DNA of 64,000 nucleotides from a candidate division FCPU426 bacterium (GTDB taxonomy: Bacteria; Oederibacteriota; Muellerivitia; Muellerivitales; Muellerivitaceae). A model generated the notes under the pieces. The model did no database searches. It saw nothing but the letters and a program-made list of their open reading frames with translations, and was not told the DNA's origin. Where the stretch lies: contig CAVYSE010000020.1 of assembly GCA_963771075.1 (NCBI GenBank), positions 32,001 to 96,000 on the forward strand, read 5' to 3'. A program made the translations under genes and the position numbers. Positions 32,083 through 53,544 of this stretch are shown in pieces; positions within the stretch are counted from its first letter, which is position 1; the number at the start of each line of letters is the position of its first letter.

Positions 32083-32355
32083 CTAATCCCTTTCCCCGAA
32101 TTTATTCAAAAATAAGGCCTGGATCGCCATGGAGGCCTCCGAGGCGTCATCCCCCTCAAAGACGAGCGTCAGTTCTTGCCCATAGCCGGCGGCAAGGGTC
32201 ATCAAATTGATCAGGCTCTTGGCGTTCAGGCTTCCGCTGTTCCTTCGAATCAAGATGCGGCATTTGTATTGGGAGGTCGCCTTGACGAACGTAGCGGCGG
32301 CGCGGATATGAAGACCGAGGCGGTTTAAGACTTTGACAGTTTTGGTGATTTCCAC
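32083..32355 (-). CDS. ptsH: HPr family phosphocarrier protein
   Basis: VLNRLGLHIRAA (His15) and NAKSLINLMTL (Ser46). Confidence 0.88.
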   Translation of the reverse strand: MEITKTVKVLNRLGLHIRAAATFVKATSQYKCRILIRRNSGSLNAKSLINLMTLAAGYGQELTLVFEGDDASEASMAIQALFLNKFGERD

Positions 32356-33020: not shown

Positions 33021-33050
33021 TTGACATTTATTTGGGAAGGGGAGTAATGT
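33021..33050 (+). promoter_or_regulatory. Sigma70-type promoter of the sulfate operon leader
   Basis: TTGACA-N18-TAATGT, ending 12 nt before the first aptamer. Confidence 0.6.
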
Positions 33051-33062
33051 TCCAACATCAAA

Positions 33063-33191
33063 CGCGAGGCTTTAAGGTCCAACTTGCCCCGGCGTTTCCC
33101 GAAAGGGAAGAACAGGGTGCTAAAGCGGTTAAGAGTTTAAGAGATTCTATCTAAACCCGATCCGCCCAAAGTGGACCGGGTTTTTTGTTTT
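33063..33191 (+). promoter_or_regulatory. SAM-II-like riboswitch 1 with intrinsic terminator
   Basis: CGCGAGGCTTTA..TCCAACTTGCCCCGGCG-[hairpin]-AACAGGGTGCTAAAGCGGT; terminator CCCGATCCGC-CCAAA-GTGGACCGGG-T6. Confidence 0.75.
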
Positions 33192-33269
33192 ACACCGAAA
33201 AACCCTTTAAAAACTAAGTTTTGCCCCACTGGTTCCTTGAACTGCGGGGAAGGCAAACATTGTTTGCCA

Positions 33270-33410
33270 CCGGCGAGGCTTTATTAACCTACTTGCCCCG
33301 GCCGGCTTTCGTTGGATGTTTCAACGGAGGGAACAGGGACTAAAGCGGTGGAAGATTATTGGAACAACCATAATCCCAAACCGCTGAAGCAAACGGTCTG
33401 GGATTTTTTT
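33270..33410 (+). promoter_or_regulatory. SAM-II-like riboswitch 2 with intrinsic terminator
   Basis: CGGCGAGGCTTTA..ACCTACTTGCCCCGGCCG-[hairpin]-AACAGGGACTAAAGCGGT; terminator AATCCCAAACCG...CGGTCTGGGA-T7. Confidence 0.75.
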
Positions 33411-33465
33411 ATTCCTAGAAGTTTCGATGTGGGGAGGATTGAGCAGTAAAAAGTTCAATTTTGTA

Positions 33466-33723
33466 CGGCGGGATTTAACAGGCGGTGAAAAAGCCTTCAA
33501 CCGGCTTTTTCTTTCTAGTGTGCGGGTCGCAGGCGACCCGTCCTAGCCCCTGGCTTTTACGGAACGTTACCAATCGCGGTTTTGGATGGTAACCCCCTGA
33601 AAGCACCAACTTGCCCCGGCCGGATTCGTTCCAGCTTTTGGAATGGACAAACAGGGAGCTAAAGCGGTATCGCGATGAAGACTTTTTCATCCCGGCCCGC
33701 TTAAGCAGTGGGGCCGGGTTTAT
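33466..33723 (+). promoter_or_regulatory. SAM-II-like riboswitch 3 (long-loop variant) with terminator-like hairpin
   Basis: CGGCGGGATTTAAC-[~125 nt, 3 hairpins]-ACCAACTTGCCCCGGCCG-[hairpin]-AACAGGGAGCTAAAGCGGT; hairpin CCCGGCCC...GGGCCGGG-TTTAT. Confidence 0.7.
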
Positions 33724-33783
33724 GGCCCCGGGTGAACTGGACACCTTAAAAACCCATTAAATTTTTTAAAAAAGGGGCTAAAA

Positions 33784-35265
33784 ATGAAAAAGTTATTCGC
33801 TTATTGGTTGGTATTACTGGCGGGTTTATTCCTGACGACCGCCAGGGTTGGCGCGCAGGAACCATCTTCGGTTGGGAATTCGAAGCAGGATGCTCCTTCG
33901 ACGGATACCCCGGCGGCGGTCTCGGCTTCGGATATCGAAGCCCTGAACAACCGGCTCAACGCCCTGGAAAAGGGATCGGTCGTGTTGTCCACCGAGCATA
34001 ATTACCTCGATATTGGCACCCAAAAGGGCGATATCGTCTTTAAGATCGGCGCGGTAGTGCAGGGGGATTACCGGTCCTATTTCTACCCGGCTTCCAGTTA
34101 TGACGACAACCTGCCGATTGGGGCTGCGGGCGGCGGTGTCACGAATTTTGAGGAGGGGGCGACGGCGGCTTCGGTCAACAAATCCAGCAGTACCTTCCTG
34201 GACCGCAAGGTCCGGTTGGACCTGGTTGCCCTCTTTGACCAGACTGTGGGTTTGCGATACCAGGCCGAATTTGGCGCCACGGGTTACGCCATCCAGGACG
34301 CCTACGCCTTCGTAAAGGCGGACCCGGCTTTCCAATTCCAACTGGGAAAGTTCAAGGTGCCTATCGGCCTGGAACGCCTGCAAAACGACACGGATACTCT
34401 TTTTGCCGAGCGCGCCCTGCCCACCGACCTGGTCCCCAACCGTGACCTGGGCGGCCTTATCGGCGGGTCGGTTCATAATTACGCCCTCTACGCGGTGGCC
34501 TTGACCAACGGGACGCCCGACAATTACACGCCCAACAACGCCGACGACCAAAGCCTGACCGGCGGTAAGGAATTATCGGGAAGGGTTTTCCTGACGCCTT
34601 TCCAACCCACCGATTCCTTTCTCAAGAACCTTGGGGTTGGAATCTCGGGGTCCTGGGCCTGGAACGTGAGTTGGAACAGCAACGCCTATCCCAATTATTT
34701 CGTCACCTCCCTGGGCCAACAGCAATTCTTCGCCTATCGGACGGGCGTTTCCCCCCAGGGCGATTTTTACCACCTATCCCCCCAGGGCTACTTTTATAAC
34801 GGTCCCTTCGGATTGTTGGGAGAGTATGTCCAGTCCACCCAGAACGTCGGGACCTCCGCCAAGACTTCCGTGAGCCTCAATAACCAGGCCTTCCTGTTGC
34901 AGGCTTCATGGGTTATTGGCGGGAGGGCTTCCTACCAAGGCGCGGTCGCGGATAATGACTTGGATCTTTCCAAGGGCCGTTGGGGTGCTTTGGAGGTGGG
35001 CTTTCGGGTGCACCAATTGACCATCGACCCGAATGCCTTTAGCGCCACGGAAGCCTCGGATGTGGCGGCCACCAATTCGGCCCAGCAGGCCACGGCTTAC
35101 GGCGCGGGTTTGAACTGGATTTTCGACCCCCATTTCAAGCTGGTCTTCGATTGGGAGGAAACGGATTTCGTGGAAGGGACCCAGGTGACACCGAACATTA
35201 CCGGCACCGTTACGACCCTGCATCCCGAGGATGTTTTCACCATCCGGGCCCAGGCCAACATTTAA
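33784..35265 (+). CDS. OprO/OprP-family anion-selective porin, probably for sulfate
   Basis: Signal peptide, [13 protein letters not shown]...[26 protein letters not shown] motifs; first gene of the sulfate operon. Confidence 0.8.
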
Positions 35266-35282: not shown

Positions 35283-36311
35283 ATGAAAAAAATAAATCTT
35301 AGTCTCGGATTGCTGATGGGTCTTACCGCCGCTTCCTGGGTTTATGCCCAGGAGGCCCCAGTCGGGAAAACGGGGGGCGCGGTTAGGATTCTCAACGTGT
35401 CCTACGACCCTACGAGGGAATTTTACGCGGATTACGACAAGGTTTTCGCCGGCTACTGGAAAAAGAAAACGGGGCAGGATGTGACCGTGGACCTTTCCAA
35501 CGGGGGATCGGGCAAGCAGGCCCGGGCCATTATTGACGGCCTGGAAGCCGATGTGGCGACTTTGGGGCTTTCGGGCGATATCGACGCCATCGCGGCCAAA
35601 GCCCAGCTGCTTCCCGACGATTGGGAAAGCCGGTTGCCCGACCATAGCGCCCCCTATACCTCCACCATTGTTCTTTTGGTGCGCAAGGGGAACCCCAAGG
35701 CCATTAAGGATTGGGACGACCTGGTGAAACCCGGGGTGGCCGTGATCACTCCGAACCCGAAAACTTCCGGCGGCGGCCGATGGAACTTTCTGGCCGCCTG
35801 GGGATGGGCTCTTTCCAAATATGGAACGGAGGATAAAGCCAGGGAATTTGTAGGCAAGATCTACAAGAATGTCCCGGTGTTGGATTCAGGCGCGCGGGGT
35901 TCCACCACCACTTTTGCTGAAAGGGGCCTGGGAGACGTTTTGATCGCTTGGGAAAACGAGGCCTACCTGGCCGTCAACCAGTTGGGGAAGGACCAATTCG
36001 AGATTGTTTATCCATCCTCCAGCATTTTGGCCGAACCTTCAGTGGCCTGGGTGGACAAGAACGCCGCGAAACACGGTACGACCGAGGTGGCGGAGGCCTA
36101 CCTGAAATATCTCTACAACCCCGTGGGGCAGGACGTCATAGCCCGCAACTACTACCGGCCCCGGTCTAAAAAGGTCGAGGAGAAATACCGCAGCCAGTTT
36201 CCCGTGATCAAGCTCTTTACCGTCAACAAGGTGTTCGGTGGTTGGAAAAAAGCCCAGCCCGCCTATTTCAACGACGGCGGGGTCTTTGACCAAATCTACC
36301 AACCTAAATGA
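35283..36311 (+). CDS. sbp: Sulfate ABC transporter substrate-binding protein
   Basis: [48 protein letters not shown] before ATG 35283. Confidence 0.95.
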
Positions 36312-36454
36312 ACCAGTTGGCAGTCCACAGTTCGCAGTTCGCAGTCAAGCGGGTAACACCCTATTCCCCATGGAGTCTTTATCGAAGGGGTTATTTTCGG
36401 GAAGCCGGTTCATTGGGGGCCGGCTTTTCCCCAAACCAAAAAGGGTTGGAATCC

Positions 36455-36733
36455 ATGGCCATCATCGAATCCATACCGGTATTAAACCGCTTAGGGCTTC
36501 ATCTGCGGGCTGGGGCCGAATTGGTCAGGACTTGTTCCCGGTTCCAATGCCAGGTGAGGGTGGGGCATGGCGGAAGGTCGGCCAACGCGAAAAGCCTGAT
36601 CCAACTCTTAACCCTCGGCGCCCTTTATGGTACGGTACTGGAGTTTTCGGCCCAGGGCGAGGACGCACCGGAGGCCATCAGGGCGATCCAAAAGTTATTG
36701 AAATCTTGGGAGGAGTTGGAAATTGACGAATAA
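36455..36733 (+). CDS. HPr family phosphocarrier protein inside the sulfate operon
   Basis: VLNRLGLHLRAG, NAKSLIQLLTLG, GEDA..A; start reassigned to ATG 36455. Confidence 0.85.
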   Translation: MAIIESIPVLNRLGLHLRAGAELVRTCSRFQCQVRVGHGGRSANAKSLIQLLTLGALYGTVLEFSAQGEDAPEAIRAIQKLLKSWEELEIDE

Positions 36734-36742
36734 CAAATCATC

Positions 36743-37024
36743 TTTCACCACCAAACACTTCGGCCCGCAACCGAAGTGTCGATGACCAAGGCACCAAGAA
36801 CAACAAAGCCAATTAGATTAGGAACAACCGAAACAAAGGAATTGGGTTAGAACCGATAACAAAACTAAGATGTAATATTAACCACTAAGGCTCAAAGACA
36901 CCAAGTAAAGCAAAAGGTTTGGATTTACTTCGTTTTTCTTCTGCCAATCTAACGAAGTTCTTGGTGCCTTGGTGTCTTGGTGGTGAAAAAGAGAGTTAAG
37001 TGACTTGGCGTCTTGGTGGTGAAA
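36743..37024. repeat. Inverted-repeat (MITE/REP-like) element built of CACCAAG 8-mer units
   Basis: Perfect 17-bp IR 36785-36801/36957-36973; TTTCACCACCAA at 36743 vs TTGGTGGTGAAA at 36977 and 37013. Confidence 0.7.
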
Positions 37025-37042
37025 AATTTTAGGTGGTATTAA

Positions 37043-37870
37043 ATGAATTCTAAATCTCCTGGTGTACTCCCGGGGTTCCGTCTCTCCATGGGCTACACCC
37101 TTTTTTACCTGGGCCTCATTGTTTTGATCCCCCTGGGGGCGATGGTATTAAAAACCACCCAGCTCACCTGGGTACAGTTCCTGGCGACGGTCCTGAGTCC
37201 CCGCGTACTGGCTTCTTTTCGGCTGACTTTCGGGTGTTCCATCATTGGGGCGGCCATCAATTCGGTTTTCGGGGCCGTCGTGGCCTGGGTCCTGGTCCGC
37301 TATACCTTTCCCGGGAAACGGCTTTTCGACGCCCTAGTGGACCTTCCTTTCGCCTTGCCCACGGCCGTGGCCGGCATCACCCTGACAGAACTCTATTCCC
37401 CCCAAGGTTGGATCGGCCGTTGGCTGATTCCCCTGGGTATCAAGGTGGCCTATACCCCCCTGGGTGTGGCGGTGGCCTTGACCTTTATAGGCCTTCCTTT
37501 CGTGGTCCGGACCCTTCAACCGGTCCTTGAGACGATGGATAAGGATATGGAGGAAGCGGCGGTCAGTTTAGGGGCGAACCGCTTTACGATCATTACCAAG
37601 GTGATTTTGCCCAGTCTCGTACCTGCCTGGATCACCGGGTTTTCCCTCGCATTCGCCAGGGCGGTGGGGGAGTACGGTTCGGTCGTGTTTATCTCGGGAA
37701 ACATGCCCATGAAGACCGAAATTACGCCCTTACTTATCATCTCAAAACTGGAACAATACGATTACGCCGGGGCCACGGCCCTGGGGGTGGTGATGCTGGT
37801 GATTTCATTTGCCATGCTGTTGACGGTGAATTGGCTTCAGGCCAAAACAGGCAAGCATCGAATCCATTAA
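37043..37870 (+). CDS. cysT: Sulfate ABC transporter permease CysT
   Basis: VLPGF, DLPFALPTAVAGI, EEAA, GEYGSVVFISGNMP. Confidence 0.95.
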   Translation: MNSKSPGVLPGFRLSMGYTLFYLGLIVLIPLGAMVLKTTQLTWVQFLATVLSPRVLASFRLTFGCSIIGAAINSVFGAVVAWVLVRYTFPGKRLFDALVDLPFALPTAVAGITLTELYSPQGWIGRWLIPLGIKVAYTPLGVAVALTFIGLPFVVRTLQPVLETMDKDMEEAAVSLGANRFTIITKVILPSLVPAWITGFSLAFARAVGEYGSVVFISGNMPMKTEITPLLIISKLEQYDYAGATALGVVMLVISFAMLLTVNWLQAKTGKHRIH

Positions 37871-37887
37871 CATTAAAAGAGGAAGAT

Positions 37888-38802
37888 TTGACTCGAGAAA
37901 CGATTATTGTTATTTCTAAAGGAAATCGCGCCTCGCTGGACCCCAATCGGGGTATGACCGAGCCGGGATGGGTGAAGTTTACCCTGATCGGGATCTCCCT
38001 CCTGTTTTTAGGGCTTTTTTTGGTGATACCTTTGGCGGAAGTGTTTGTTTCGGCGCTCCAGAAGGGGATCGGCTTTTATTTCGACGCGATCCGGGACCCG
38101 GCCGCCCTTTCGGCCTTGAGGTTGACTCTCCTCACCGCGTTTTTCTCCGTTTTTTTCAATTTGATCTTCGGGTTGGCTTCAGCCTGGGCCATCACGCGGT
38201 TCGAATTTCCCGGCAAAAACCTGCTTATCACCTTGATCGACTTGCCTTTCACCGTCTCCCCGGTCGTGTCTGGCCTGATCTACGTGCTGCTCTTCGGTTT
38301 ACAAGGCTACCTTGGGCCCTGGGTCTTGTCCCACGGAATCCACATTATCTTCGCAGCGCCCGGTATCATCCTGGCCACGATTTTCGTGACCTTTCCCTTC
38401 GTGTCTAGGGAACTGATTCCCTTGATGCAGGAACTGGGCTCGGAAGAGGAACAAGCGGCTTTGGTTTTGGGTGCGAACGGATGGCAAATTTTTTGGCGGG
38501 TAACCTTGCCCAATATCCAGTGGGGCCTTCTCTATGGGGTCATTCTTTGTAACGCCAGGGCAATGGGGGAATTTGGGGCGGTATCGGTGGTTTCGGGCCA
38601 CATCCGGGGACTGACCAACACCCTGCCCTTGCATGTGGAAATTCTCTATAACGAATACAATTTTACGGCCGCTTTCGCAGTCGCTTCCTTATTGACCTTT
38701 TTGGCGCTGGTGACCCTGGTCGCCAAGGCGATCGTTGGCGCCCGCACCGTGCAAGAGAGGGAAATCCTTCCCATCTCCCATGAAAGCGAGCCTGCCCTAT
38801 GA
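37888..38802 (+). CDS. cysW: Sulfate ABC transporter permease CysW
   Basis: DLPFTVSPVVSG, RELIPLMQ, NARAMGEFGAVSVVSGHIRG; start uncertain (37888 or 37954). Confidence 0.95.
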   Translation: MTRETIIVISKGNRASLDPNRGMTEPGWVKFTLIGISLLFLGLFLVIPLAEVFVSALQKGIGFYFDAIRDPAALSALRLTLLTAFFSVFFNLIFGLASAWAITRFEFPGKNLLITLIDLPFTVSPVVSGLIYVLLFGLQGYLGPWVLSHGIHIIFAAPGIILATIFVTFPFVSRELIPLMQELGSEEEQAALVLGANGWQIFWRVTLPNIQWGLLYGVILCNARAMGEFGAVSVVSGHIRGLTNTLPLHVEILYNEYNFTAAFAVASLLTFLALVTLVAKAIVGARTVQEREILPISHESEPAL

Positions 38803-39842
38803 GTATCGAAGTCCGGGGGATCTCAAAAACCTTTAACGGTTTTCAAGCCGTGCGGGATGTCAGCCTGAAACTGGAAAGCGGGTCCCTGACCGCCCTGCTG
38901 GGCCCCTCGGGCTCGGGGAAAAGCACCCTGCTTCGCATGATCGCCGGGTTGGAAACCCCCAATTCGGGCGAGATCCACTTGACCGGCCGGGAAGCCACCT
39001 ATATTTCAGCTAAGGAACGCAATGTCGGGTTTGTTTTCCAGCATTACGCCCTTTTCAAGCACATGACCATCTTCGAAAACATCGCCTTCGGTTTAAGGGT
39101 CCGTAAATATGCGGAGAAGGACATCAAGGACAGGGTTTTCGAACTCCTCAGTCTTATCCAACTACAGGGCCTGGAAAACCGGTATCCATCCCAGCTTTCG
39201 GGAGGCCAGCGCCAAAGGGTGGCGGTCGCCCGCGCCCTTGCGCCTCGGCCGGAGGTTTTGCTATTGGACGAGCCCTTTGGGGCTTTGGACGCCAAGGTAC
39301 GGGAAGAATTAAGGGAGTGGATTTTAAAGCTCCACGAGGAAACCAACGTGACGACCCTTTTCGTGACTCACGACCAAAATGAGGCGCTGGAAGTGGCGGG
39401 CCGAATTCTGATTATGAACCAGGGAAGGATTGAGCAAGATGGCACTCCGCTTGAAATCTTCGACCAGCCAGCCACCCATTTCATCGCCCAGTTCGTGGGG
39501 GAGACCAACTATATTGACACGAAAATTAGCGAGAAGGGTTTGGCGGTGTGGGGGCCTTTCCGATTCATGGTTACCCCCTTCTTTAAATTGGGGCAGAAAG
39601 TGCGTATTTATTTTCGCCCCAATGACGTTTACATGACCGCTCAATTTGAGACCCTGCAGGTGAAGGCCAAGGTGCTTTCTATCCGTTTCAAGGGAACGAT
39701 GATGGAATACAAACTCGACGTGGGGGAAGAAAAGCAAATTATCGCTCAGGTACCCAAGGGCGTGGCCTTGGCCAGCGGGTTTTCCGAGGGGGCGGAGGTA
39801 TTCGCCGCCATTACCGCCTTCCACGTTTTTCCGCTGGATTAG
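38799..39842 (+). CDS. cysA: Sulfate ABC transporter ATP-binding protein
   Basis: GPSGSGKST, LSGGQRQR, LLLDEPFGALDAKVR, TOBE-like end. Confidence 0.95.
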   Translation: MSIEVRGISKTFNGFQAVRDVSLKLESGSLTALLGPSGSGKSTLLRMIAGLETPNSGEIHLTGREATYISAKERNVGFVFQHYALFKHMTIFENIAFGLRVRKYAEKDIKDRVFELLSLIQLQGLENRYPSQLSGGQRQRVAVARALAPRPEVLLLDEPFGALDAKVREELREWILKLHEETNVTTLFVTHDQNEALEVAGRILIMNQGRIEQDGTPLEIFDQPATHFIAQFVGETNYIDTKISEKGLAVWGPFRFMVTPFFKLGQKVRIYFRPNDVYMTAQFETLQVKAKVLSIRFKGTMMEYKLDVGEEKQIIAQVPKGVALASGFSEGAEVFAAITAFHVFPLD

Positions 39843-39975
39843 GAATTCTTGATAACCCCTCCACTGGGGGTTGTGTTAGTCCTTAAAAATGTGTAATTTC
39901 ATAGGCCTTTAACGTAGAGGCTGGACTTTCCCGGGCGAAAAACCCAGGTTTAACCAAGACTATTATGGGGAGAAT

Positions 39976-40893
39976 TTGTTGAGCCAGCAGGAACCAAAAT
40001 CCTTTTCGCACCTGAAACAACTTGAAGCGGAGAGCCTGTTCATCATCCGGGAAGTCGTTTCGGAATTCAAAAAACCCGTCATGCTCTATTCGGTGGGGAA
40101 AGATTCTTCCGTCATGCTTCGCCTGGCCCAAAAGGCCTTCCACCCGGGCAAGATTCCCTTTCCCCTGATGCACGTGGACACAAGCTACAAGTTCCCCGAG
40201 ATGTACCAGTTCCGGGACAAATTGATCGCCGACCTGGGCGCCAAGCTTCTGGTGGAACGCAACGAGGATGCTATCTCGGCCGGTTCCAGTCCCTTCAAAT
40301 ACGGGGTGGATAAATGCTGCGCGCTGTTGAAGACCCAGGGACTGTTGGACGCCCTCACCAAGCACGGTTTTGACGCTGCCTTCGGCGGGGCGAGGCGGGA
40401 AGAGGAAAAATCCCGGGCGAAGGAAAGGGTTTATTCATTCCGGGATTCCTTCGGCCAGTGGGACCCCAAGAACCAGCGGCCCGAACTTTGGGACCTCTAT
40501 AACTCCAAGATCAACGAGGGGGAATCCATTAGGGTTTTCCCCCTTTCCAATTGGACTGAACTGGATATTTGGCTCTATATCGAGATGGAAAAGATTCCCG
40601 TGGTACCCATTTACTTTACCCACGAACGAAAGATCATCAAACGCAAGCAACTCCTGATTCCTTGGGCCCCCCATATCCCCCTTTTGCCGGGAGACGAAGT
40701 GAAACAGATGAGGGTTAGGTTCCGGTCCCTGGGATGTATGTCCTGCACGGGTGCCATCGAGTCCGAAGCCTCCAGCTTGCGGGATATCATCGAGGACCTG
40801 GTTTTGACCCGAAAGAGCGAGCGGGAAAATCGCATTATCGATCACGGCTCGGACAGTTCCATGGAGCAAAAGAAAAAAGAAGGATACTTCTAA
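39976..40893 (+). CDS. cysD: Sulfate adenylyltransferase subunit 2
   Basis: [47 protein letters not shown]. Confidence 0.97.
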
Positions 40894-40972
40894 AAGCAGT
40901 CGGCAGCCGACATCTCTAAAGACGTGAATGTGAAAAATTGTTTGTTAACGGTTAACTAAATTGGGAGTCGTA

Positions 40973-42242
40973 ATGACTATCGACGAGAAATCGGAAATCA
41001 GCTACGCGAACATGGGCCTCCTGCGGTTTTCCACCGCGGGTTCGGTGGATGACGGCAAGTCCACCTTGATCGGGCGGCTGCTTTTTGACTCCAAAAGCGT
41101 CTTTGAGGACCAATTGGAGGCCATTCGCAAGACCACCTCCAAAAAGGGAGGGGAAGAGATCGACCTGGCTCTCATCACGGACGGCCTTGCCGCCGAACGG
41201 GAGCAGGGTATCACGATCGACGTGGCCTACCGCTATTTCGCGACTCCCAAGCGCAAGTTTATCATCGCCGACACTCCCGGCCACGAACAATACACCCGCA
41301 ACATGGTCACGGGAGCCTCCACCTCCAACCTGGCGATCATCCTGCTGGATGCCCGTAACGGGGTTATGACCCAATCGAGGCGCCACGGTTTTATCGCAAA
41401 CCTTTTGGGCATCCCCCATCTGGTGGTCGCCATCAATAAGATGGACCTAGTGGATTATTCCCAGGAGGTATTCAACCGCATCCGCGCCGAGTTCGGGGCC
41501 TTCACGAAGGAAATTGGCGCGCCCGAGCCTATGATTATTCCCATTTCCGCGCTCAAGGGCGACAATGTGGTGGAAAAGAGCGGCGCCATGCCTTGGTACC
41601 AAGGGCCCGCGCTTTTGCATTATTTGGAAACCGTGGAGATTAACCGCGACCTGAACCAGGAGGATTTCCGCTTCGCGGTGCAGACCGTGATCCGGCCCAA
41701 CCTGGATTACCGGGGTTTCGCTGGCCGGATCGGCTCGGGCCGAATTCGCCGGGGGGATCGGGTGGTCGTTCTGCCCTCGGGGATCGAGACATCCGTCAGG
41801 GCTATCGACACTTTTGAGGGGGAAATCGAGGAAGCTTTCGCGCCCCTTTGCGTGACCCTGCGCTTGAAAGACGAGGTGGATTTGTCCCGAGGGGACATGC
41901 TCGTCCGCCCCGACAACCGGCCCCAAAGCGGGCCCCTCTTTACCGCCGATCTCTGCTGGATGGTGCAAGAGCCCTTGAACCTCAGGAAAAAGTATTCCCT
42001 CAAGCACACCACCCAGACTGTGAAAGCCATGGTGGTGGACATCGAGTATCGGACCAACATCAACACATTGGATAAGGAGAAAAGTGGATGAACTTGGGAT
42101 GAACGATATCGCCCGGGTCAAGGTCCAATCGCTCAAACCCCTCTATTTTGACCCTTACAAGAAGAACCGCAACACGGGCAATTTCATTCTGATCGATGAG
42201 CTGTCTAATAACACGGTGGCGGCAGGCATGATCGTCGGGTGA
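40973..42242 (+). CDS. cysN: Sulfate adenylyltransferase subunit 1; +1 frameshift at the A4 run 42080-42083
   Basis: [33 protein letters not shown]. The conserved tail MNDIARV...[16 protein letters not shown]...NNTVAAGMI continues in another frame to TGA 42242. No APS kinase domain. Confidence 0.93.
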
Positions 42243-42453
42243 AAACGAGCATCCCCTTTTAACAACCTGAAGATCACAAAGTTAAATTTGATGTTTTATT
42301 GAGGATTTTAATGACGTGCTTTATGTTCTTTGTATTCTTTGTGGTGGAAGTTTGGGGTTTTGTTAGAGACTCTAAATCCTATTGCGCATTTTTCATGGTT
42401 TATGGTTAAAATCTACCCTTCACAGCTGATCTTCCGTAAGTAAATGAGGAAAC

Positions 42454-44907
42454 ATGCCTACTGCGCTCATCATTCACGGACATTTTTACCAACCCCCCCG
42501 GGAAAACCCCTGGACGGGGGTCATCGATGACCAACCCAGCGCCCAGCCTTTTTCCAATTGGAATGACCGGGTCTATTATGAGTGCTACCGCCCCAACGCT
42601 TTCGCCCGGGTTTTCGACCTGCGAAGCAACCGCATTGAGAACATCACCAATAATTACGAGTTCCTCAGCTTCAACATGGGCCCCACACTTCTCTCCTGGA
42701 TGGAGGTTTACCATCCCGGTACCTACCGAAAGATCCTATTGGCCGACCAAGAAAGCCAAAAGCACAACAACGGCCATGGCAACGCCATCGCCCAAGGTTA
42801 TAACCATGCCATCCTTCCACTCTGCAATGACGCCGACCGGGTTACCCAGGTCAAGTGGGGGATCGCGGACTTCAAATATCGGTTCGTCCGAGACCCGGAG
42901 TCACTCTGGTGCCCCGAGACCGCCTGCGACGACGCGACCCTGTCGGTATTGATCGACGAAGGCCTGAAGTACGTCATCCTCTCGCCCATTCAGGCCCAGC
43001 GCGTTCGTCCACTTTCCGGGGGCGAGTGGCAGGACGTTTCCAACAGCTCGATTGATCCCAGCCTGGCCTATCGTTATTTTCACCGGGACGGATCGCGTCG
43101 TTCGATCGACATTTTCTTTTATGACATGAACATCGCCAAGTCCATCGCCTTCGAAGGCGCGCTCATCAGCTCCCAAGCCCTGCTTGAAAGAATCGGTCGC
43201 GCAGGCCGAGGCGAGGGACGGGTCATCCAGGCTGCCACCGACGGGGAATCCTATGGCCACCACACCAAATTCGGGGACCGCAGCCTGGCCTATGCCCTTG
43301 AAGTCGAGGCCGCGAACCACGATTACTGGGTCACCAATTATGGGGCTTTCCTGGACAAGAATCCGCCCTCCCAGGAAGTGGAGATCAAGGCCGGGGAGGA
43401 AGGCAAGGGCACTTCCTGGAGTTGCGCCCATGGGGTGGGGCGATGGTACCGGGATTGCGGTTGCGAGACGGGCGGGAGGGAAGGCTGGAACCAGAAATGG
43501 CGGGGCCCCCTGCGCCGGGCATTCGATTACGTGCGGGACACTGTAAATCTCTATTTCGAGGTGGAAAAAGGGAAACTATTCAAGGATCCCTGGGCCGCCC
43601 GCAACGATTACATCCACTTGATCCTTGATCCGAAGGCGTCTCGCGGGGAATTCTTGGAACGCCACGCCGGACGATCCTTGAGGCCAGAGGAAAAGGTGAG
43701 GGCCCTGACCCATTTGGAGATCCAGCGGAACGCCATGCTCATGTATACGAGCTGCGGCTGGTTCTTCAGCGACCTCTCGGGCATTGAGACCACCCAGGTG
43801 ATGAAATACGCCGCCCGGATATTCGACTTCATGTCGGACCTGGGATTGCCTTCCCCCGAAAAGACCTTTTTGGAGATCCTCGCCGAAGCCAAGAGCAATA
43901 TTACCGAGTACGGGTCGGGCGCCGATGTTTACCACCGGTATGCCCAGTCCTGCCGGGTGACTCCCGAGGGCGTGGCCGCCCATCTGGCTATTTCCTATCT
44001 GGTAAACCATCCGCCCGCGAAGGACCGGGTGGGGGGCTATATATATGAGATCAAGGACCAGCGAAAGGAAACCCACGGCCGTTACACCCTGATGACCGGA
44101 AGCGTCATCCTGGAAGAAACTTTTTGCCGGCGCTCAATTCAACTAGCCGTGGCTGGACTGCACCTGGGCGGCATCGACTTTTACGGGGCGGTGAAACCTT
44201 ATCCGGGCGATTCCTCTTTTCTTATGTCCGCCGAGAAGCTCTGGGAAGAGTTTTACGTGGCCTCCCTTCCTAAACTTTTGAGGCTGATCCAGGAACAATT
44301 CGGGCCTCAGGAGTTCGGTGTGGAACAGCTTTTGCCTGAGTCGCGCCAGCGCATCTTCCAGGGCATTTATGGGACCCTGGTGGAGCGTTTTTCGGAGCAA
44401 TATGTGCGCTTGTACGAAGACAATCGGCGCAACCTGGAGATGCTCCAGGCGGTGGGTTTTGAGCTTCCCAAGGAGATTCGGGCTGCCGCGGAGTTCACCT
44501 TCGGGAAAATTTTTGAGGAGGAAATTCAGAAGAAAGAATGGTTCAAGGACGAGGATGCCTACCGGAAAATGCTGGATCTGGCCGATCAGGTGACCCAGCA
44601 CGGCTACCAGGTCGATCGTTTCGTGGCGGAGCACACTTTCCGGAATCTCATCACCGAGATCGTGGAAAAGGCCGTCGCCGAGCCGACCGAGGAAAACCTG
44701 AACGCGGCTTTGGCGGTGGTGCACCTGACCAAAAAACTGGGCCTGCACCATAACCTCTACCTGGGACAGGAAGCGGTTTTTGAGGCGGCGGAAAAACCGA
44801 CTGACTTTGCCAAATTCATCCCCCTATCCGACTTGCTGGACTTGAGGACGGACCTGTTGCTTGCCAAGAACAAGGAACTTTTGAAAATTACTACCCCCAA
44901 GGTTTAA
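42454..44907 (+). CDS. GH57-like / DUF3536 domain protein (glycogen metabolism)
   Basis: IIHGHFYQPPRENPW, YNHAILPL, W.PETA, ATDGESYGHH, SWSCAHGVGRW, MYTSCGWFF. Confidence 0.88.
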   Translation: MPTALIIHGHFYQPPRENPWTGVIDDQPSAQPFSNWNDRVYYECYRPNAFARVFDLRSNRIENITNNYEFLSFNMGPTLLSWMEVYHPGTYRKILLADQESQKHNNGHGNAIAQGYNHAILPLCNDADRVTQVKWGIADFKYRFVRDPESLWCPETACDDATLSVLIDEGLKYVILSPIQAQRVRPLSGGEWQDVSNSSIDPSLAYRYFHRDGSRRSIDIFFYDMNIAKSIAFEGALISSQALLERIGRAGRGEGRVIQAATDGESYGHHTKFGDRSLAYALEVEAANHDYWVTNYGAFLDKNPPSQEVEIKAGEEGKGTSWSCAHGVGRWYRDCGCETGGREGWNQKWRGPLRRAFDYVRDTVNLYFEVEKGKLFKDPWAARNDYIHLILDPKASRGEFLERHAGRSLRPEEKVRALTHLEIQRNAMLMYTSCGWFFSDLSGIETTQVMKYAARIFDFMSDLGLPSPEKTFLEILAEAKSNITEYGSGADVYHRYAQSCRVTPEGVAAHLAISYLVNHPPAKDRVGGYIYEIKDQRKETHGRYTLMTGSVILEETFCRRSIQLAVAGLHLGGIDFYGAVKPYPGDSSFLMSAEKLWEEFYVASLPKLLRLIQEQFGPQEFGVEQLLPESRQRIFQGIYGTLVERFSEQYVRLYEDNRRNLEMLQAVGFELPKEIRAAAEFTFGKIFEEEIQKKEWFKDEDAYRKMLDLADQVTQHGYQVDRFVAEHTFRNLITEIVEKAVAEPTEENLNAALAVVHLTKKLGLHHNLYLGQEAVFEAAEKPTDFAKFIPLSDLLDLRTDLLLAKNKELLKITTPKV

Positions 44908-45194
44908 TGGCGTAAACCCAAACTGGTTTTTAGTCAAGGATACATAGGATTCATTCGGATAAAGAATAGAGAATACAACTAGGAGCCTGTGACAAAATTA
45001 TTTCCATCACGCCACGTTCCGACCTCGAAGATTGTTAATTAAGAGACGGCTTGTGGCAGATTCTTTTCGAAAAGGTTGTTATGTCGTGTTACAGGGACTT
45101 ATTTTACGTGCCTGTAAAGTCCATCGGTTTTTCCCTAACCTCCCTTATGTGTTAATCTGTACACGCTGAAATTATCCATTCTGAGGTGCCTTAA

Positions 45195-47477
45195 GTGCCT
45201 GCCCCGAGAAAAAAAGCCAAAACTGCTCCCAAAGCTCTGAAACCTAAGACGACCGCCCGACCGCCCCAAAGAGGTGTGGGAAAGGCCTCTTCAGACAAGG
45301 AAGCGGTCCTTCCGCCTTCCGCCAAGGCCATCCTTCAGTTCAACCAGCGGGACCCCCATTCCTACCTCGGTATGCATCCGGGGACCGAGGGCGTAACCTT
45401 GCGTGTTTACCGGCCCGAGGCCCTGACGGTCACCGTGTCCGGGCCTGGTTTTAAACCTATTTCCCTAAAGTCCCTGGGTTCCGGTTTTTTCGAGGGGCTG
45501 GTGCCCGGCAAAAAAGAATTAGCCCCTTACTCCCTGACGGTGGTTTACCTCAACGACCGAACTTTTACCTACATGGACCCCTATGCCTTTTGGCCCACCT
45601 TGGGCGAGATGGACCTCTACCTTTTGGGCGAGGGAAACCATGAAAGACTTTTCGAGAGGATGGGCGCCCATGTGATGGAGTGGCAGGGCGTGACCGGCGT
45701 GGCCTTTGCCGTATGGGCTCCCGGCGCCAAGAGTGTCAGCTTGGTGGGGGATTTCAACGGATGGGACGGGCGATTGCATCAGATGCGCTGTTTGGGTTCC
45801 TCAGGTATCTGGGAAATCTTCATGCCCGAGCTGAGGGCGGGGGACAAATACAAGTATGAGATCAGGCCTTCCCAAGGCGGCTACCTATTGAAGGCTGACC
45901 CCTTTGCCTTCGAGGCTGAAAAGCCTCCCAAGACCGCCTCCGTCATCTACCAGAGCCATTACCGGTTCCATGACATGGACTGGATGAGCCACCGGTCGGA
46001 GAACGCCAGCCTCAAACAGGCCGTTTCCGTCTATGAACTGCATTTGGAGTCCTGGAAAAAAGTCCCGGAGGAGAACAATCGCCCCCTCAACTACCGAGAA
46101 ATCGCGGTCGATCTCGCCGATTACCTGAATGAGCTGGGATTCACCCACGTGGAACTGATGCCGGTCATGGAGCATCCTTTTGGCGGTTCCTGGGGTTACC
46201 AGGTCTCGTCCTATTACGCTCCGACCTCTCGTTTCGGTTCGCCGGACGATTTCAAATTCTTCGTGGATCATCTGCACCAAAAGGGCATCGGGGTGATCCT
46301 GGATTGGGTGCCCGCTCATTTCCCGAAGGATGATTTCGCACTGGGCCGTTTCGACGGTTCGGGCCTCTATGAGCATATCGACCCCCGACAGGGGGAGCAT
46401 CCCGATTGGGGGACCTACGTCTTCAACTTCGGGCGGAACGAGGTGCGCAATTTTCTGCTTTCCAACGCCCTCTATTGGCTTTCGGAGTTCCACGTAGATG
46501 GTTTGAGGCTTGACGCGGTGGCTTCCATGCTTTACCTGGACTACAGCCGGGAAGATGGGGAATGGATCCCCAACCAGTTCGGGGGGAATGAAAACCTGGA
46601 GGCGATCGCCTTCCTAAAGAGACTCAACGAGTTGGCCTACGCCAAATTTCCAGGTGTCCTGATGATCGCGGAGGAGTCGACCGCCTGGCCCGGGGTGAGC
46701 AAACCCACCTACACGGGGGGGCTGGGCTTCGGCTACAAGTGGAACATGGGGTGGATGCACGACACGCTCTATTATTTTAGCCGGGACCCCATCCACCGCC
46801 GATATCACCACAATAACCTGACCTTCGGCTTTCTCTACGCCTGGAGCGAGAATTTCATGCTGCCCCTTTCTCACGATGAGGTGGTGCACGGCAAAGGCTC
46901 CATGATCGACAAGATGCCGGGGGACCGCTGGCAGAAGTTCGCCAACCTGCGCTCCCTATACGGCTATATGTGGGCGCATCCAGGCAAAAAGCTATTGTTC
47001 ATGGGCAGCGAATTCGCCCAGTTCAACGAGTGGAATCATAACGCCAGCCTCGATTGGCATCTGACCCAATATGCCGACCATTGGCGTATGCAGGACCTCA
47101 TCCGGGATCTGAATAAAATTTACAAGGAAAATCCGGCCCTCCATGAGGCGGACACGGATCCTGCGGGCTTCCAATGGGTGGACGTGAACAACGCGGATGA
47201 GAACATCGTGGCTTTTTTACGCAAATCCCCCGCGACGGGAAAACAAATCCTTTGTGTGGGCAACTTCTCGCCTGTGATTCGCTACAACTACCGGGTAGGC
47301 CTACCCAAGTGGGGATACTATAAGGAAATCCTCAACACCGATTCTCACATCTATGGGGGAAGCAACTTTGGAAACGCTGGCGGTGTTCATTCCGAGGAAG
47401 TGCCCTACCAGGGCCAGCCCCACTCGGCTGTTGTAAACCTTCCGCCCCTTGCGACCCTTTGGTTCGAGGCGCCTTGA
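45195..47477 (+). CDS. glgB: 1,4-alpha-glucan branching enzyme
   Basis: SWGYQ, LDWVPAHFP, DGLRLDAVASMLY, AEESTAWP, KWNMGWMHD, LSHDEVVHGK. Confidence 0.97.
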   Translation: MPAPRKKAKTAPKALKPKTTARPPQRGVGKASSDKEAVLPPSAKAILQFNQRDPHSYLGMHPGTEGVTLRVYRPEALTVTVSGPGFKPISLKSLGSGFFEGLVPGKKELAPYSLTVVYLNDRTFTYMDPYAFWPTLGEMDLYLLGEGNHERLFERMGAHVMEWQGVTGVAFAVWAPGAKSVSLVGDFNGWDGRLHQMRCLGSSGIWEIFMPELRAGDKYKYEIRPSQGGYLLKADPFAFEAEKPPKTASVIYQSHYRFHDMDWMSHRSENASLKQAVSVYELHLESWKKVPEENNRPLNYREIAVDLADYLNELGFTHVELMPVMEHPFGGSWGYQVSSYYAPTSRFGSPDDFKFFVDHLHQKGIGVILDWVPAHFPKDDFALGRFDGSGLYEHIDPRQGEHPDWGTYVFNFGRNEVRNFLLSNALYWLSEFHVDGLRLDAVASMLYLDYSREDGEWIPNQFGGNENLEAIAFLKRLNELAYAKFPGVLMIAEESTAWPGVSKPTYTGGLGFGYKWNMGWMHDTLYYFSRDPIHRRYHHNNLTFGFLYAWSENFMLPLSHDEVVHGKGSMIDKMPGDRWQKFANLRSLYGYMWAHPGKKLLFMGSEFAQFNEWNHNASLDWHLTQYADHWRMQDLIRDLNKIYKENPALHEADTDPAGFQWVDVNNADENIVAFLRKSPATGKQILCVGNFSPVIRYNYRVGLPKWGYYKEILNTDSHIYGGSNFGNAGGVHSEEVPYQGQPHSAVVNLPPLATLWFEAP

Positions 47478-47576
47478 TTCCATTGGGGAATTGAAGATTG
47501 CGACCCAATAATCCACTCCCTATAATGACCGGGTTTTGGCGGGGGTAACAAAGGATTTGGAAATTGAGAGGCCCGC

Positions 47577-48479
47577 TTGCCCCAAATGAATAAGCCTTCG
47601 AGATTATTAAAGGAAGCCATGAAGACCAAAATCGCCCATAAAAAAACACCCTCCAAAAAGAAACCCAAGTCCAAAAAAGCCACAACGGCCTGGGATCGGG
47701 TCCAACTGGCCCGCCACGCCCAAAGACCTTTCATGATGGACTATATTCCACGTATTTTTCACGAGTTCGTGGAAGTGCATGGAGACCGTGCTTTTGGCGA
47801 CGACCCGGCCATGGTCACGGGCTTCGCCCTGCTGGAGGGCCTGCCGGTAGCGGTAGTGGGCCAGCAAAAGGGGCACGATACCAAGGAAAATATCCGTAGA
47901 AATTTCGGCATGTCCCAGCCGGAGGGCTACCGTAAGGCCTTGCGGGTGATGAAATTGGCCGAGAAATTCCATAAACCCATCATCACCTTTATCGACACGG
48001 CTGGGGCCTATCCTGGATTGGGCGGGGAAGAAAGGGGACAGGCGGAAGCCATCGCCCGAAACCTCCTGGAAATGGCGAAACTGAAAACCCCTATTATCTC
48101 GATCATTCTGGGCGAGGGCGGAAGCGGTGGAGCCATTGGAATCGGCGTGGCCAACAAAGTACTCATGATGGAAAACGCCTGGTATTCGGTGATCTCGCCC
48201 GAGGGTTGCGCGGCCATCCTTTGGAATGACCGGGAAAAGATCCAGCAAGCTTCAGAGGTTTTAAGGCTTTCGGCGCCGGACCTCATGAGATTTAAGGTCA
48301 TCGATGAGATCATCCCAGAACCCGTGGGCGGCGCCCAGTTAGATCACGAGAAAACATCTGCCACACTGAAAACCGCCATCTTGAAACATTTAAGACCACT
48401 CTTGAAATTGAGCCCCAAAGCTCTCGAGGAACAACGCTACAAAAAGTTTCGTGCAATGGGTCAAATTAAAGAAAAGTAA
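47577..48479 (+). CDS. accA: Acetyl-CoA carboxylase carboxyltransferase alpha subunit
   Basis: HGDRAFGDD, PEGYRKALR, GEGGSGGA, YSVISPEGCA. Confidence 0.97.
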   Translation: MPQMNKPSRLLKEAMKTKIAHKKTPSKKKPKSKKATTAWDRVQLARHAQRPFMMDYIPRIFHEFVEVHGDRAFGDDPAMVTGFALLEGLPVAVVGQQKGHDTKENIRRNFGMSQPEGYRKALRVMKLAEKFHKPIITFIDTAGAYPGLGGEERGQAEAIARNLLEMAKLKTPIISIILGEGGSGGAIGIGVANKVLMMENAWYSVISPEGCAAILWNDREKIQQASEVLRLSAPDLMRFKVIDEIIPEPVGGAQLDHEKTSATLKTAILKHLRPLLKLSPKALEEQRYKKFRAMGQIKEK

Positions 48480-48521
48480 CCGTCCCAACATGTTTGTTGC
48501 CCAAAGAAACCAAAATCAAAA

Positions 48522-49325
48522 ATGAACACACTCCGGCAACCAGAAAAACCCATCTTGCTATACAGCCCAATGAAGATTTCTTTTTTTATTCATCTTATCC
48601 TTATTTCAACCGCTTTTTGCCTCATGGCTCCGAATGGGGTTTTAGCAGGTCCACGGATTGTGCTTTATGCGGCGCATGGAGGAGATGACACGGGCGTCAG
48701 CGGCAAGGGACAACTTGAGAAAACATGGAACCTGAAAGTGGCCCAGTCCCTGCAAAAGGCTTTGTCGGCGGACGGGTTTGACGTGGTGATGGTGCGAACC
48801 AAGGATGAATCCATTCCAGACGATCAATGGGTGGCCCAGGCCAATGGATCGGGTGCGGGAGCCGTTTTGGTGATCCACGCCGAACGGGAATGGACAGGCC
48901 AAATGAGCGGTCCCCTTGCCGTAGTGGAACCCCCCACGAGCATGAACACCCCGGAAACCCAAGGAATTCAGCGATGGGGATCCATCCCCGTTTCCCGCTT
49001 CCGACAGAGTTTGCGGCTCGCCAAGGCCCTGACCCAGGCTTGGGGGAAAAACGCCCAGCTTTCCAACCTGTCCGACAGCCGGGCCCTGCCGGGCGAAAGC
49101 ATTTCACCGGACGGGAGGGTCCTAGCCTGCGCCCACCAATCCCTTCGCTACTTGATCCTTCCGGCCGTGGTAATTGAACCCCTCTTTTTGACTTCTTCTC
49201 AGGATCTCAAACGCATGTCGAACGATGAGGGGCTGCAAGATTTCGTATCGAAAACGGCGCTGGGACTTCATTCTTTTTTTTCAGATGTACCCTTGAAAGG
49301 TTTTACGAATGGTTTTAGAGATTAA
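48522..49325 (+). CDS. N-acetylmuramoyl-L-alanine amidase (Amidase_3, divergent)
   Basis: HGGDD.G..E..NL, VIHA, PAVVIE Zn-ligand pattern. Confidence 0.75.
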   Translation: MNTLRQPEKPILLYSPMKISFFIHLILISTAFCLMAPNGVLAGPRIVLYAAHGGDDTGVSGKGQLEKTWNLKVAQSLQKALSADGFDVVMVRTKDESIPDDQWVAQANGSGAGAVLVIHAEREWTGQMSGPLAVVEPPTSMNTPETQGIQRWGSIPVSRFRQSLRLAKALTQAWGKNAQLSNLSDSRALPGESISPDGRVLACAHQSLRYLILPAVVIEPLFLTSSQDLKRMSNDEGLQDFVSKTALGLHSFFSDVPLKGFTNGFRD

Positions 49326-49953
49326 ACCCAAATACGGACCGTCCATCCGACGCGGTTTGATCGCTTGGCTTTTTCTAGGCCTTGGCCTTACCACACTGGT
49401 GGCGTTTAGTTGGTGGAAATGGAAGCACCACGTCGCATCGGCTCCGATCCAACTTGCGGGGCAGCCATTGGAGCAAACCCCGCTCTTTAACCCCCATGAC
49501 AAGCCCATGACGATCGTGCTGAAGGGTTGGGATATCGAATCGGGTCGTGTGGTGGGTTTCAAAACGGTGATTCATCAAAGTAAGAACCGATACAACCAGA
49601 TCAAACAGGCGGTTTTGGCCTTTTTGCATGGTCCCCGGCAAGGAAAGATCCAGGTGCCCGTTCCAGAGGGGATGGAGCTCAACCAGCTTTACCTGACACC
49701 GGAGGGTCTGGCGGCCGTGGACCTCGAAATGGATGGGGTTCAGGATGACGCCTTCGGATTCTTTGAGGAGGTCCTCTTCGTGAGGACTTTGATCGGATCC
49801 CTGTCTAGTAATTTTTTCGAGGTGAAACAGGTGAAAATCCTGGTGGACGGGAAAGACGCCCCTTTAATGGCGGGGCATTACGCCCTGGGCACATCCGAGG
49901 TCAATGTACCACTGGCCGCATCCAAACCAAAAGTTCCCACCAACATTCCCTAA
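49309..49953 (+). CDS. GerMN domain membrane-anchored protein
   Basis: One TM, GP...P, VDL, VKQVKILVDG...GH; follows an amidase, a common pairing. Confidence 0.75.
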   Translation: MVLEIKPKYGPSIRRGLIAWLFLGLGLTTLVAFSWWKWKHHVASAPIQLAGQPLEQTPLFNPHDKPMTIVLKGWDIESGRVVGFKTVIHQSKNRYNQIKQAVLAFLHGPRQGKIQVPVPEGMELNQLYLTPEGLAAVDLEMDGVQDDAFGFFEEVLFVRTLIGSLSSNFFEVKQVKILVDGKDAPLMAGHYALGTSEVNVPLAASKPKVPTNIP

Positions 49954-50033
49954 AAGGGAAGGCTTGTTTAACTTGCAAAGGGCCAAAAACCCCGTTATTT
50001 TCATTGGCTCAACCCCGTTTCCCAGGAATAAAA

Positions 50034-52685: not shown

Positions 52686-52692
52686 GCCCGCG

Positions 52693-53544
52693 TTGAAACC
52701 CAACATCACCTGGAATCAAGTTCGTCCGCTCCTTCGCCAGGCTCTGGAGGAAGACGGAGCCTTTGCCGACCGAACCACTTTTTCCACCGTACCAGCAAAT
52801 GTGAAGTCCCGGGGGAAAATTCTTGCCAAGCAGGACGGCGTCCTGGCGGGATTGCCCATCGTCGAAGCGATTTTCAAACTAGTTGATAAGAATTGCCGGG
52901 TCGTCTTTCGGGTGAAAGAGGGCGCCAAGGTGCGATCCGGAGCAAGGATATTGACCTTTTCCGGCCCGGCTCGGGCCTTTCTATCGGGTGAACGGACCGC
53001 TCTTAACTTCTTAAGCCGCCTTTCGGGTATCGCCACGCTGACCCGGCAAATGCGAAATTTGATAGGAACCGACAAGCTTTATGATACACGCAAGACGACG
53101 CCCTTGTTGCGGCCCCTGGAGCGCTACGCGGTAAGGGTGGGCGGGGGTCGAAATCACCGGTATAACCTACGGGGCCACGTCTTGGTTAAGGACAACCATA
53201 TCAAGCTTGGCGGCGGGGTTTACCAATGTGTCATGAACGCCCGGAAGAAATACGGGCCGAAGGAATTCATCGAGGCGGAAGTGGAAACTTTTGAAGAAGC
53301 CGCAGATGCCCTTCGGGCGGGCGCGGACCTGTTGCTGGTGGATAATTCTTCGCCGACCCTGGTGAAGAGGGTCCTGAAGCTGGTGAAGGGGAAGGCCCAA
53401 GTGGAAATTTCCGGCGGGCTCACCCGCTCGACCATTACCCGGTTCAAGGGTCTGAAGGTGGACCGTTTTTCCTCGGGCGCACTGACCCATTCGGCTCCTT
53501 CCATTGATTTTTCACTTGAAATGGAAAACTTTGAACAATTCTAA
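52693..53544 (+). CDS. nadC: Nicotinate-nucleotide diphosphorylase (carboxylating)
   Basis: ERTALNFL, DTRKTTP, NHR, VKDNH, EVE. Confidence 0.95.
   Translation: MKPNITWNQVRPLLRQALEEDGAFADRTTFSTVPANVKSRGKILAKQDGVLAGLPIVEAIFKLVDKNCRVVFRVKEGAKVRSGARILTFSGPARAFLSGERTALNFLSRLSGIATLTRQMRNLIGTDKLYDTRKTTPLLRPLERYAVRVGGGRNHRYNLRGHVLVKDNHIKLGGGVYQCVMNARKKYGPKEFIEAEVETFEEAADALRAGADLLLVDNSSPTLVKRVLKLVKGKAQVEISGGLTRSTITRFKGLKVDRFSSGALTHSAPSIDFSLEMENFEQF

Follow-up and report, generated by a model that had tools for sequence, protein, structure and literature searches.

The leader of a sulfate uptake and activation operon in the analysed window (the whole stretch of 64,000 nt under study) carries three copies of a compact pseudoknot RNA, and folding models make it probable, in our view, that these act as three SAM-II/SAM-V-type aptamers in series, each an OFF switch, of which units 1 and 2 would terminate transcription and unit 3 would block translation. 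The porin gene heading the operon starts at 33784, and the preceding 763-nt stretch holds three copies of a two-part motif. The elements ACTTGCCCCGGC and CTAAAGCGGT each occur three times in this leader, where the preliminary description had placed them, and the three copies it reported are confirmed as aptamers 1–3 below. With up to one mismatch allowed, the 12-mer ACTTGCCCCGGC has three matches in the window, all of them in the leader, compared with a mean of 0.56 in shuffled sequences, none of which reached three. The 5' consensus CGGCG proposed earlier is not fixed, as copy 1 reads AAACGC and pairs with GCGUUU. The features are as follows, all on the plus strand; bit scores refer to model R1, built from an alignment of 85 distinct copies out of 106 parsed, restricted to those whose 5' end could be parsed and whose turn and hairpin were short.

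33021..33050, +, probable sigma-70 promoter (TTGACA 33021–33026, TAATGT 33045–33050, 18-nt spacer), read from the sequence
33060..33129, +, aptamer 1, SAM-II/SAM-V-type pseudoknot with P3 hairpin (P1 covariation; 84.9 bits, this copy being in the R1 training set)
33153..33191, +, intrinsic terminator 1, whose 5'-arm CCGC can pair with the aptamer GCGG (hairpin-plus-U test)
33270..33349, +, aptamer 2, with A at the SAM-II G42 position (64.6 bits)
33372..33413, +, intrinsic terminator 2 with an ACCGCU antiterminator site (hairpin-plus-U test)
33466..33668, +, aptamer 3, interrupted by a structured insertion (P1 CGGC/GCCG parsed from its two sides; 3' part alone 40.9 bits)
33477..33605, +, self-folding insertion of 129 nt in the turn leading from the UUU strand to P2 (-53.6 kcal/mol)
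33691..33718, +, hairpin 3, a stem resembling a terminator but lacking a proper U-tract; 3' arm GGGGCC at 33710–33715
33719..33729, +, anti-Shine-Dalgarno element, whose predicted alternative partners are the ribosome site and the 3' arm of hairpin 3
33774..33786, +, Shine-Dalgarno-like GGGGCT and porin start codon
33784..35265, +, OprO/OprP-family porin (PF07396), a likely sulfate entry route judging by its context
35283..36311, +, sulfate-binding protein sbp
36452..36733, +, HPr-family protein within the operon
37043..39842, +, cysT, cysW, cysA, sulfate ABC transporter
39976..42091, +, cysD, cysN, sulfate adenylyltransferase

The promoter scanner returned no sites, the probable leader promoter lying below its threshold. 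Among homologous arrays, TAnnnT stands shortly upstream of 48 of 62 first copies and of 5 of 43 inner copies, which is consistent with one transcript per array. A peat metatranscriptome contains one 182-nt contig identical to 33252–33433 at depth 3; as it gives no ends, strand, or level, we draw no conclusion on expression from it, and the lack of contigs on 35300–55200 likewise proves nothing.

Aptamer fold and binding pocket

The four P1 pairs hold in 85, 85, 85, and 83 of the 85 alignment rows, and three of them show two-sided changes (13, 33, and 38 rows), giving variants such as CGC/GCG, GGC/GCC, and GGU/ACC. The covariation score of the whole structure is 0.216, against 0.087 for shuffles and no more than 0.046 for slid partners. 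This strong covariation of P1, together with the kept pocket residues and the Rfam matches of homologs described below, supports the SAM-II-like pseudoknot in triple tandem that had been proposed for this leader. In a wider set of 98 copies, P1 pairs 1–4 hold in 97–98 and pair 5 in only 41. Downstream of the 5' P1 strand, the elements are arranged as G(A)GG-N-UUU, a turn, CC-AAC-UUGC-CCCG, and the 3' P1 strand, followed by a variable hairpin and AACAGGG-N-GC-U-AAA-GC-GG; the region after P1 folds at -2 kcal/mol or below in 101 of 104 copies. We regard it as nearly certain that the RNA is a riboswitch with a fold of the SAM-II/SAM-V type.

The pocket residues named for SAM-II, including a G8 triple, are taken from the available part of PMC3764141. 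Copies 1 and 3 have all of U10–U12, U20, U21, G22, C23, G42, C43, U44, and A45–A47, and copy 2 has A for G42, which breaks the C23–G42 pair. Across copies, the upstream UUU is present in 94/99, G42 in 97/105, and CUAAA in 104/105, a conservation that is partly circular, since the columns are near-invariant and were partly demanded by the search patterns (UUG and CUAAA were needed for parsing, although one AUAAA passed).

The P2 pairs are complementary and nearly invariant, with a few compensated changes (L149, L206, L209). The two Cs after UUGC-C can pair either with the 5' GG, lengthening P1 in the manner of canonical SAM-II, or with the 3' GG, so that P2 would extend to about six pairs under the pocket. 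In canonical SAM-II, P1 reaches G8, the helix under the pocket is short, and L3 is rich in A. Across the alignment, this register is 99.3% paired and never broken, and its two extra pairs never covary. The 3' Gs, in turn, are kept in all 108 copies with the consensus 5' strand. At the next position, 29 copies have U, of which 24 swap one G so as to present A opposite this U, and three drop the spare base; two copies show a C-G to U-A change, and wherever the last G is changed its partner C is changed too (6/6, three of them giving standard pairs). In homologs L153 and L154, the longer P2 would leave a very short P1 or loop. Based on these sequence comparisons, in which the register-shift changes are shared by kin copies, we lean towards a lengthened P2 rather than the canonical SAM-II register.

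The turn of copy 3 measures 129 nt (33477–33605), compared with the usual 5 nt. The insertion was considered as a possible genome-wide repeat and rejected, being single-copy in the genome. Its first 34 nt (33477–33510) resemble the insertions in two other copies from the same genus (L006, L031); the presence of one insertion module in different copies from three genomes of the genus suggests exchange between paralogous riboswitches.

Terminators and a probable translation relay

Terminators 1 and 2, with U-tracts at 33181–33191 and 33404–33410, were identified with our own hairpin-plus-U test, because the scanner missed both full plus-strand terminators. Across the family, a terminator follows 91 of 105 copies, and the antiterminator site lies in its 5' arm in 86; where a C comes after GCGG, a G stands immediately ahead of CCGC in 19 of 24 cases. 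For transcripts of intermediate or short length, folding predicts the antiterminator in each of the three window units. At full length, terminator 1 (-20.2 kcal/mol) wins by about 9 kcal/mol over its antiterminator (about -10.9 kcal/mol), so that read-through at unit 1 must be kinetic; the antiterminator of unit 2 persists at full length in the folding model.

Under the proposed mechanism, in the absence of SAM the 3' tail AAAGCGG would be free and would pair with the emerging CCGC, the hairpin would stay open, and RNA polymerase would read on. With SAM bound, the pseudoknot would lock the tail, the hairpin would close, and transcription would stop in units 1 and 2. In unit 3, when SAM is absent, the 3' arm GGGGCC of the hairpin would capture the anti-Shine-Dalgarno GGCCCC, leaving the ribosome site open; with SAM, this arm would be used in the hairpin, and GGGGCU ahead of the start codon would be paired with the anti-Shine-Dalgarno. 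Stacking three gates would reduce leakage and make sulfate uptake and activation respond more steeply to SAM, which would serve as a measure of sulfur sufficiency. The preliminary description had postulated three sequential transcriptional OFF switches, each unit wired to its own terminator by a GC stem and T-tract. Its OFF logic through antitermination is supported, as the 5' arms of all three hairpins hold CCGC complementary to the 3' GCGG of the aptamer, and so is the link to a sulfur regulon. The stems are present in all three units, and the U-tracts in units 1 and 2 only; unit 3 fails the terminator test and looks like a translational relay, so the transcriptional reading does not extend to it.

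Hairpin 3 is followed by UUUAUGG. The three relay segments are GGGGCC (33710–33715), GGCCCC (33724–33729), and GGGGCU (33774–33779), and opening of the ribosome site is calculated to cost 2.1 kcal/mol with the antiterminator forced and 10.1 kcal/mol with the tail sequestered, a gap reached by only two of 150 spacer shuffles. Among similar last units, chosen beforehand for having a GGGG ribosome site and related to one another, the direction is the same in 21/21 cases and the effect exceeds 2 kcal/mol in 15, while in unselected last units the Shine-Dalgarno opens by more than 0.3 in 19 of 58 and the effect is reversed in 3. Most relays read GGGGUC/GACCCC/GGGGUU, and the window version is hence a three-way compensated change, common only to G001. 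Unconstrained equilibrium folding of unit 3 gives the closed form in both states, and the ON state appears only with the antiterminator enforced or with a short transcript. Given the lack of a proper U-tract and the conserved anti-Shine-Dalgarno relay, the folding models favour a mainly translational unit 3, and we consider this likely.

Alternatively, with the same aptamers and ligand, all three units might terminate transcription, hairpin 3 being a weak terminator and the anti-Shine-Dalgarno pairing incidental. Hairpin 3 is indeed stable and followed by UUUAU, and a run of at least five Us in 12 of the 21 similar last units indicates that the ancestral platform probably terminates too. We nevertheless find this improbable, since the other nine, including the window and the third copy of G003, keep the anti-Shine-Dalgarno without the U run, and the relay effect in the window stands above 148 of the 150 shuffles.

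The proposed translational relay of the window also differs from the classic translational form of SAM-II and SAM-V, in which the Shine-Dalgarno lies within P2. The window copies lack this trait, ending in GCGG followed by hairpins, and few homologs have it. Such direct sequestration in the pseudoknot was observed at L149:1577-1645, L150:1461-1526, L151:1480-1545, and L055:3135-3226, either as single copies before a TPR-containing protein or as a terminator-then-ribosome-site doublet before a porin.

Downstream genes, probable ligand, and distribution

The leader fronts a sulfate operon, as stated earlier: behind it lie the porin, sbp, an HPr paralog, cysT, cysW, cysA, cysD, and cysN, and this gene order recurs in relatives. 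An HPr gene between sbp and cysT is also found in 9 of 18 relative loci, and a second HPr gene of the window is located at 32083–32355 on the minus strand; the operon HPr may link sulfate uptake to PTS signalling. The 309-nt gap between the HPr gene and cysT (36734–37042) contains repeated CACCAAG/CTTGGTG words with the potential for long-range pairing; in G003, the two genes abut and this gap is missing.

The second array of the same genome (L001, G000:C14:71210-71489, minus strand) consists of two tandem copies, each with a terminator and the first with GUU instead of UUU, and precedes metY-cysK-metX-metW. The first genes after 91 arrays, set in 85 cases by a simple ORF rule with some starts wrong, include 25 porins, 15 peroxiredoxins (1-Cys), 12 metY, 5 ExbB, 4 DsrE-like genes, 2 sbp, and one each of cysK-like, family 2A encapsulin, and NMT1-type binding protein genes. 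Several first genes are unrelated or lack an assignment (TPR, DUF3034, NUDIX, and no-Pfam proteins). One homolog precedes cysD, and two precede genes that, from their N-termini, we take to be metH. Both metY and metH, the latter a probable assignment here, are typical SAM-repressed genes. The intact pocket together with downstream genes that mostly belong to sulfur or methionine metabolism points to SAM, which on these sequence grounds is very probably the ligand.

Sulfur islands with many arrays within 10–20 kb were observed at L155, L156, L157, L160, L035, and L032, where the arrays control ExbB/TonB, DsrE-like, family 2A encapsulin, NMT1-type, and FAD-oxidoreductase genes. A canonical SAM-I riboswitch is present in 27 of 31 genomes of the family, with a thrC-like gene behind 14 of the 26 loci for which a gene was found. 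In the genome of the window, it is located at G000:C5:67866-67997 (L168, L195; 72.4 bits) and is followed by a thrC-like gene; around codons 41–47 this gene has a frameshift in the present assembly, but relatives have it intact. The R1 search found no copy of the RNA upstream of metK of this genome. The minus-strand copy at L152:3901-3964 retains the 5' half and AACAGGG but has no GCUAAA; behind it come a terminator and a gene that begins with what we take to be the start of an EAL domain. This copy has either decayed or come to bind another ligand. Two loci of the Gammaproteobacteria-labelled genome G045 (L101, L105) have canonical-looking SAM-II at sub-threshold scores of 29.7 and 27 bits, one of them with a terminator.

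A strict pattern of the motif matches 16 of 41 related genomes, and the reversed control matches none. A scan of GTDB produced 49 loci, many of them overlapping. Seven (L054, L059, L065, L066, L069, L078, L096) were dropped as chance, having no 5' half; with R1, five of these gave no match and two scored 24.6 and 18.2 bits. The remaining loci are in genomes labelled Elusimicrobia/Elusimicrobiota, Ca. Firestonebacteria, Ca. Desantisbacteria, Acidobacteria, and "proteobacterium", and in unclassified MAGs. Model R1 matches 35 of 99 genomes of the phylum of the window, among them 28 of the 30 further members of its family (1 to 12 copies per genome); elsewhere its matches are sparse (6/141 genomes of the phylum of G106; 4/41 relatives of G105). 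In the genome of the window, R1 finds five copies at two sulfur operons and one spurious match (L120, 20.6 bits), rejected as not being a copy. The 63 arrays in the regions retrieved comprise 24 single, 29 double, and 10 triple arrays, the triples coming from 9 genomes; clipped regions may lead to undercounting.

Relation to known SAM riboswitches and alternative explanations

At gathering level, Rfam has no match in the window; relaxing E to 10 brings up only weak, unrelated ones, none from a SAM family. In family-specific searches, none of RF00521, RF01726, and RF01826 matched at the copies; for RF01826 (cut-off 41 bits) the search covered five genomes. The RF00521 search of the genome was without matches, as were its controls, and the best RF01726 score in this genome, 19.1 bits against a cut-off of 44, falls at an unrelated place and is not above noise. 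The best RF00521 score of any homolog is 13.8 bits (cut-off 36). When 4227 Rfam families were scanned against a small region around the hairpin-less homolog L207, the only two matches were SAM_V (21.3 bits) and SAM_alpha (13.6 bits); in the hairpin-less L153, SAM-II long loop (14.8 bits) and SAM_alpha are two of the three Rfam matches, both sub-threshold, and the hairpin-less L089 matches no SAM family in Rfam. Rfam similarity, whose lack the preliminary description had listed as a refuting result, is thus absent from the window copies and present below threshold in L207 and L153, and the assignment is rescued by these matches and by covariation.

With SAM-II (RF00521, SAM_alpha; metX structure 2QWY), the RNA shares the G-x-UUU third strand of an H-type pseudoknot, the CC...UUGC paired with GC-U-AAA..GG, and the coupling to terminators through the 3' tail. 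It differs in being undetected by RF00521, in having only four covarying P1 pairs with G(A)GG between P1 and UUU, in the hairpin that usually follows P1, in the conserved CCCG/CAGGG that probably lengthens P2, and in its occurrence in other phyla. SAM-V (RF01826; structure 6FZ0), the top Rfam match for L207, has the same 4-bp P1, a P3 hairpin directly after it, and a short A stack, and, according to the available part of PMC6061858, which also describes these elements and its SAM contacts, a longer third strand and identical contacts to SAM. That part of the text describes SAM-V as translational, with the Shine-Dalgarno in P2, whereas the window family mostly drives terminators and has the UUGC/GCUAAA core of SAM-II. 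The Bacteroidetes SAM-II long loops (RF01726) have the same extra purines between P1 and GAUUU and the same insertions after P1 and in the turn before P2, as far as the accessible text and supplementary alignment of PMC2864571 go, but an A-rich AAAAAUG before GCUAAA in place of AACAGGG. The RNA is most likely a new variant of the SAM-II/SAM-V kind, not a member by Rfam score; what is new in the aptamer is the extra hairpin and, probably, a longer pseudoknot helix. The open-access literature yielded no description of the variant or of riboswitches of this kind in these lineages, although the supplements of recent motif surveys could hold one.

The contrast drawn earlier with SAM-II switches as mostly single and translational fails, because terminators are their commonest partners in the accessible parts of PMC2258182 (Barrick and Breaker), PMC9373788, and PMC6061858, and the part of PMC9481103 available (Sherlock et al.) counts 44 SAM-II doublets with twin terminators or a terminator plus ribosome-site control. 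The same text lists 149 SAM-II/SAM-V tandems, one triple SAM-I array, and 12 triple c-di-GMP-I arrays; it names SAM-II as doublets only, with no triple. These known tandems are likewise serial switches for one ligand, and the bi-mechanism ones also place the terminator first and ribosome-site control last (PMC9481103, in part). The window family differs from them in having triplets in 9 genomes and, in the window, a last unit that would act through a three-part relay rather than a Shine-Dalgarno in the pseudoknot. Tandem SAM switches before sulfur genes are therefore known already, which caps the surprise; the triplets in 9 genomes and the broad sulfur regulon beside SAM-I are new.

Several other explanations were weighed. 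The triple array need not be a three-gate device: in a SAM-II/SAM-V tandem, the linker is reported to silence the first aptamer (PMC11508383, in part), so three copies need not be three working gates, and here only one or two might work, copy 2 or 3 being a weakened or decaying duplicate. The C-A mismatch of copy 2 falls at a site, C23–G42, whose G is called completely conserved in SAM-II (available text of PMC3764141), and the insertion of copy 3 is missing from its G003 ortholog. Yet the change of G42 to A is found in 8 of 105 copies and recurs in the second copies of the porin arrays of the relatives G003, G005, and G016, self-folding insertions of 38–129 nt occupy the same turn in 13 of 99 parsed copies, and the hairpin with a U run inside the copy 3 insertion (33487–33518) has only three G-C pairs; we therefore hold such decay to be very unlikely. 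That the repeats are protein-binding sites or a mobile repeat rather than a riboswitch is scarcely credible, despite the very high sequence conservation and the lack of Rfam matches in the window, because P1 covaries while its sequence changes, the copies are in sense orientation, with promoter-like sites just ahead of them and terminators after them, and the genome has only five of them, at two sulfur operons.

As to the ligand, a SAM-II-fold variant might sense another sulfur-status molecule (e.g., SAH, a SAM relative, or an activated-sulfate nucleotide) and share labour with SAM-I, which is present in the same genomes and has another gene, a thrC-like one, under its control. The regulon is weighted towards scavenging and storing sulfur, not towards metK, the helix under the pocket is unlike that of SAM-II, G42 is replaced by A in some copies, and a SAM-aptamer variant with a changed ligand has a precedent (PMC10853860, in part). 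We consider such a ligand unlikely, as the positions described as touching the adenine, sulfonium, and amino acid of SAM are kept, the regulon includes metY and probable metH, and different SAM classes are known to co-occur, even in tandem (PMC9481103, in part). A more far-reaching version has a small chance of being right: a separate class on the SAM-II fold, with the lengthened pseudoknot helix and the third strand forming a longer triple helix, would respond to a signal other than SAM, or to SAM in a very different range, and would run a whole sulfur-starvation regulon (sulfate/sulfonate uptake, TonB, peroxiredoxin, encapsulin) with triple gates, leaving another branch to SAM-I.

As a SAM-II/SAM-V-type riboswitch, the RNA represents a family of about 150 distinct sequences from uncultured lineages that is missed by current annotation, and it fills a structural gap between SAM-II and SAM-V. 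Its arrays, which occur naturally as singles, doublets, and triplets, its transcriptional as well as translational versions, and its variant pockets, all based on one small aptamer, offer a ready test set for how stacking relates to the steepness of the response and for how a termination platform turns into a translation relay. Finally, the family points unannotated porin, DUF3034, DsrE-like, TPR, and HPr-like genes towards sulfur metabolism.
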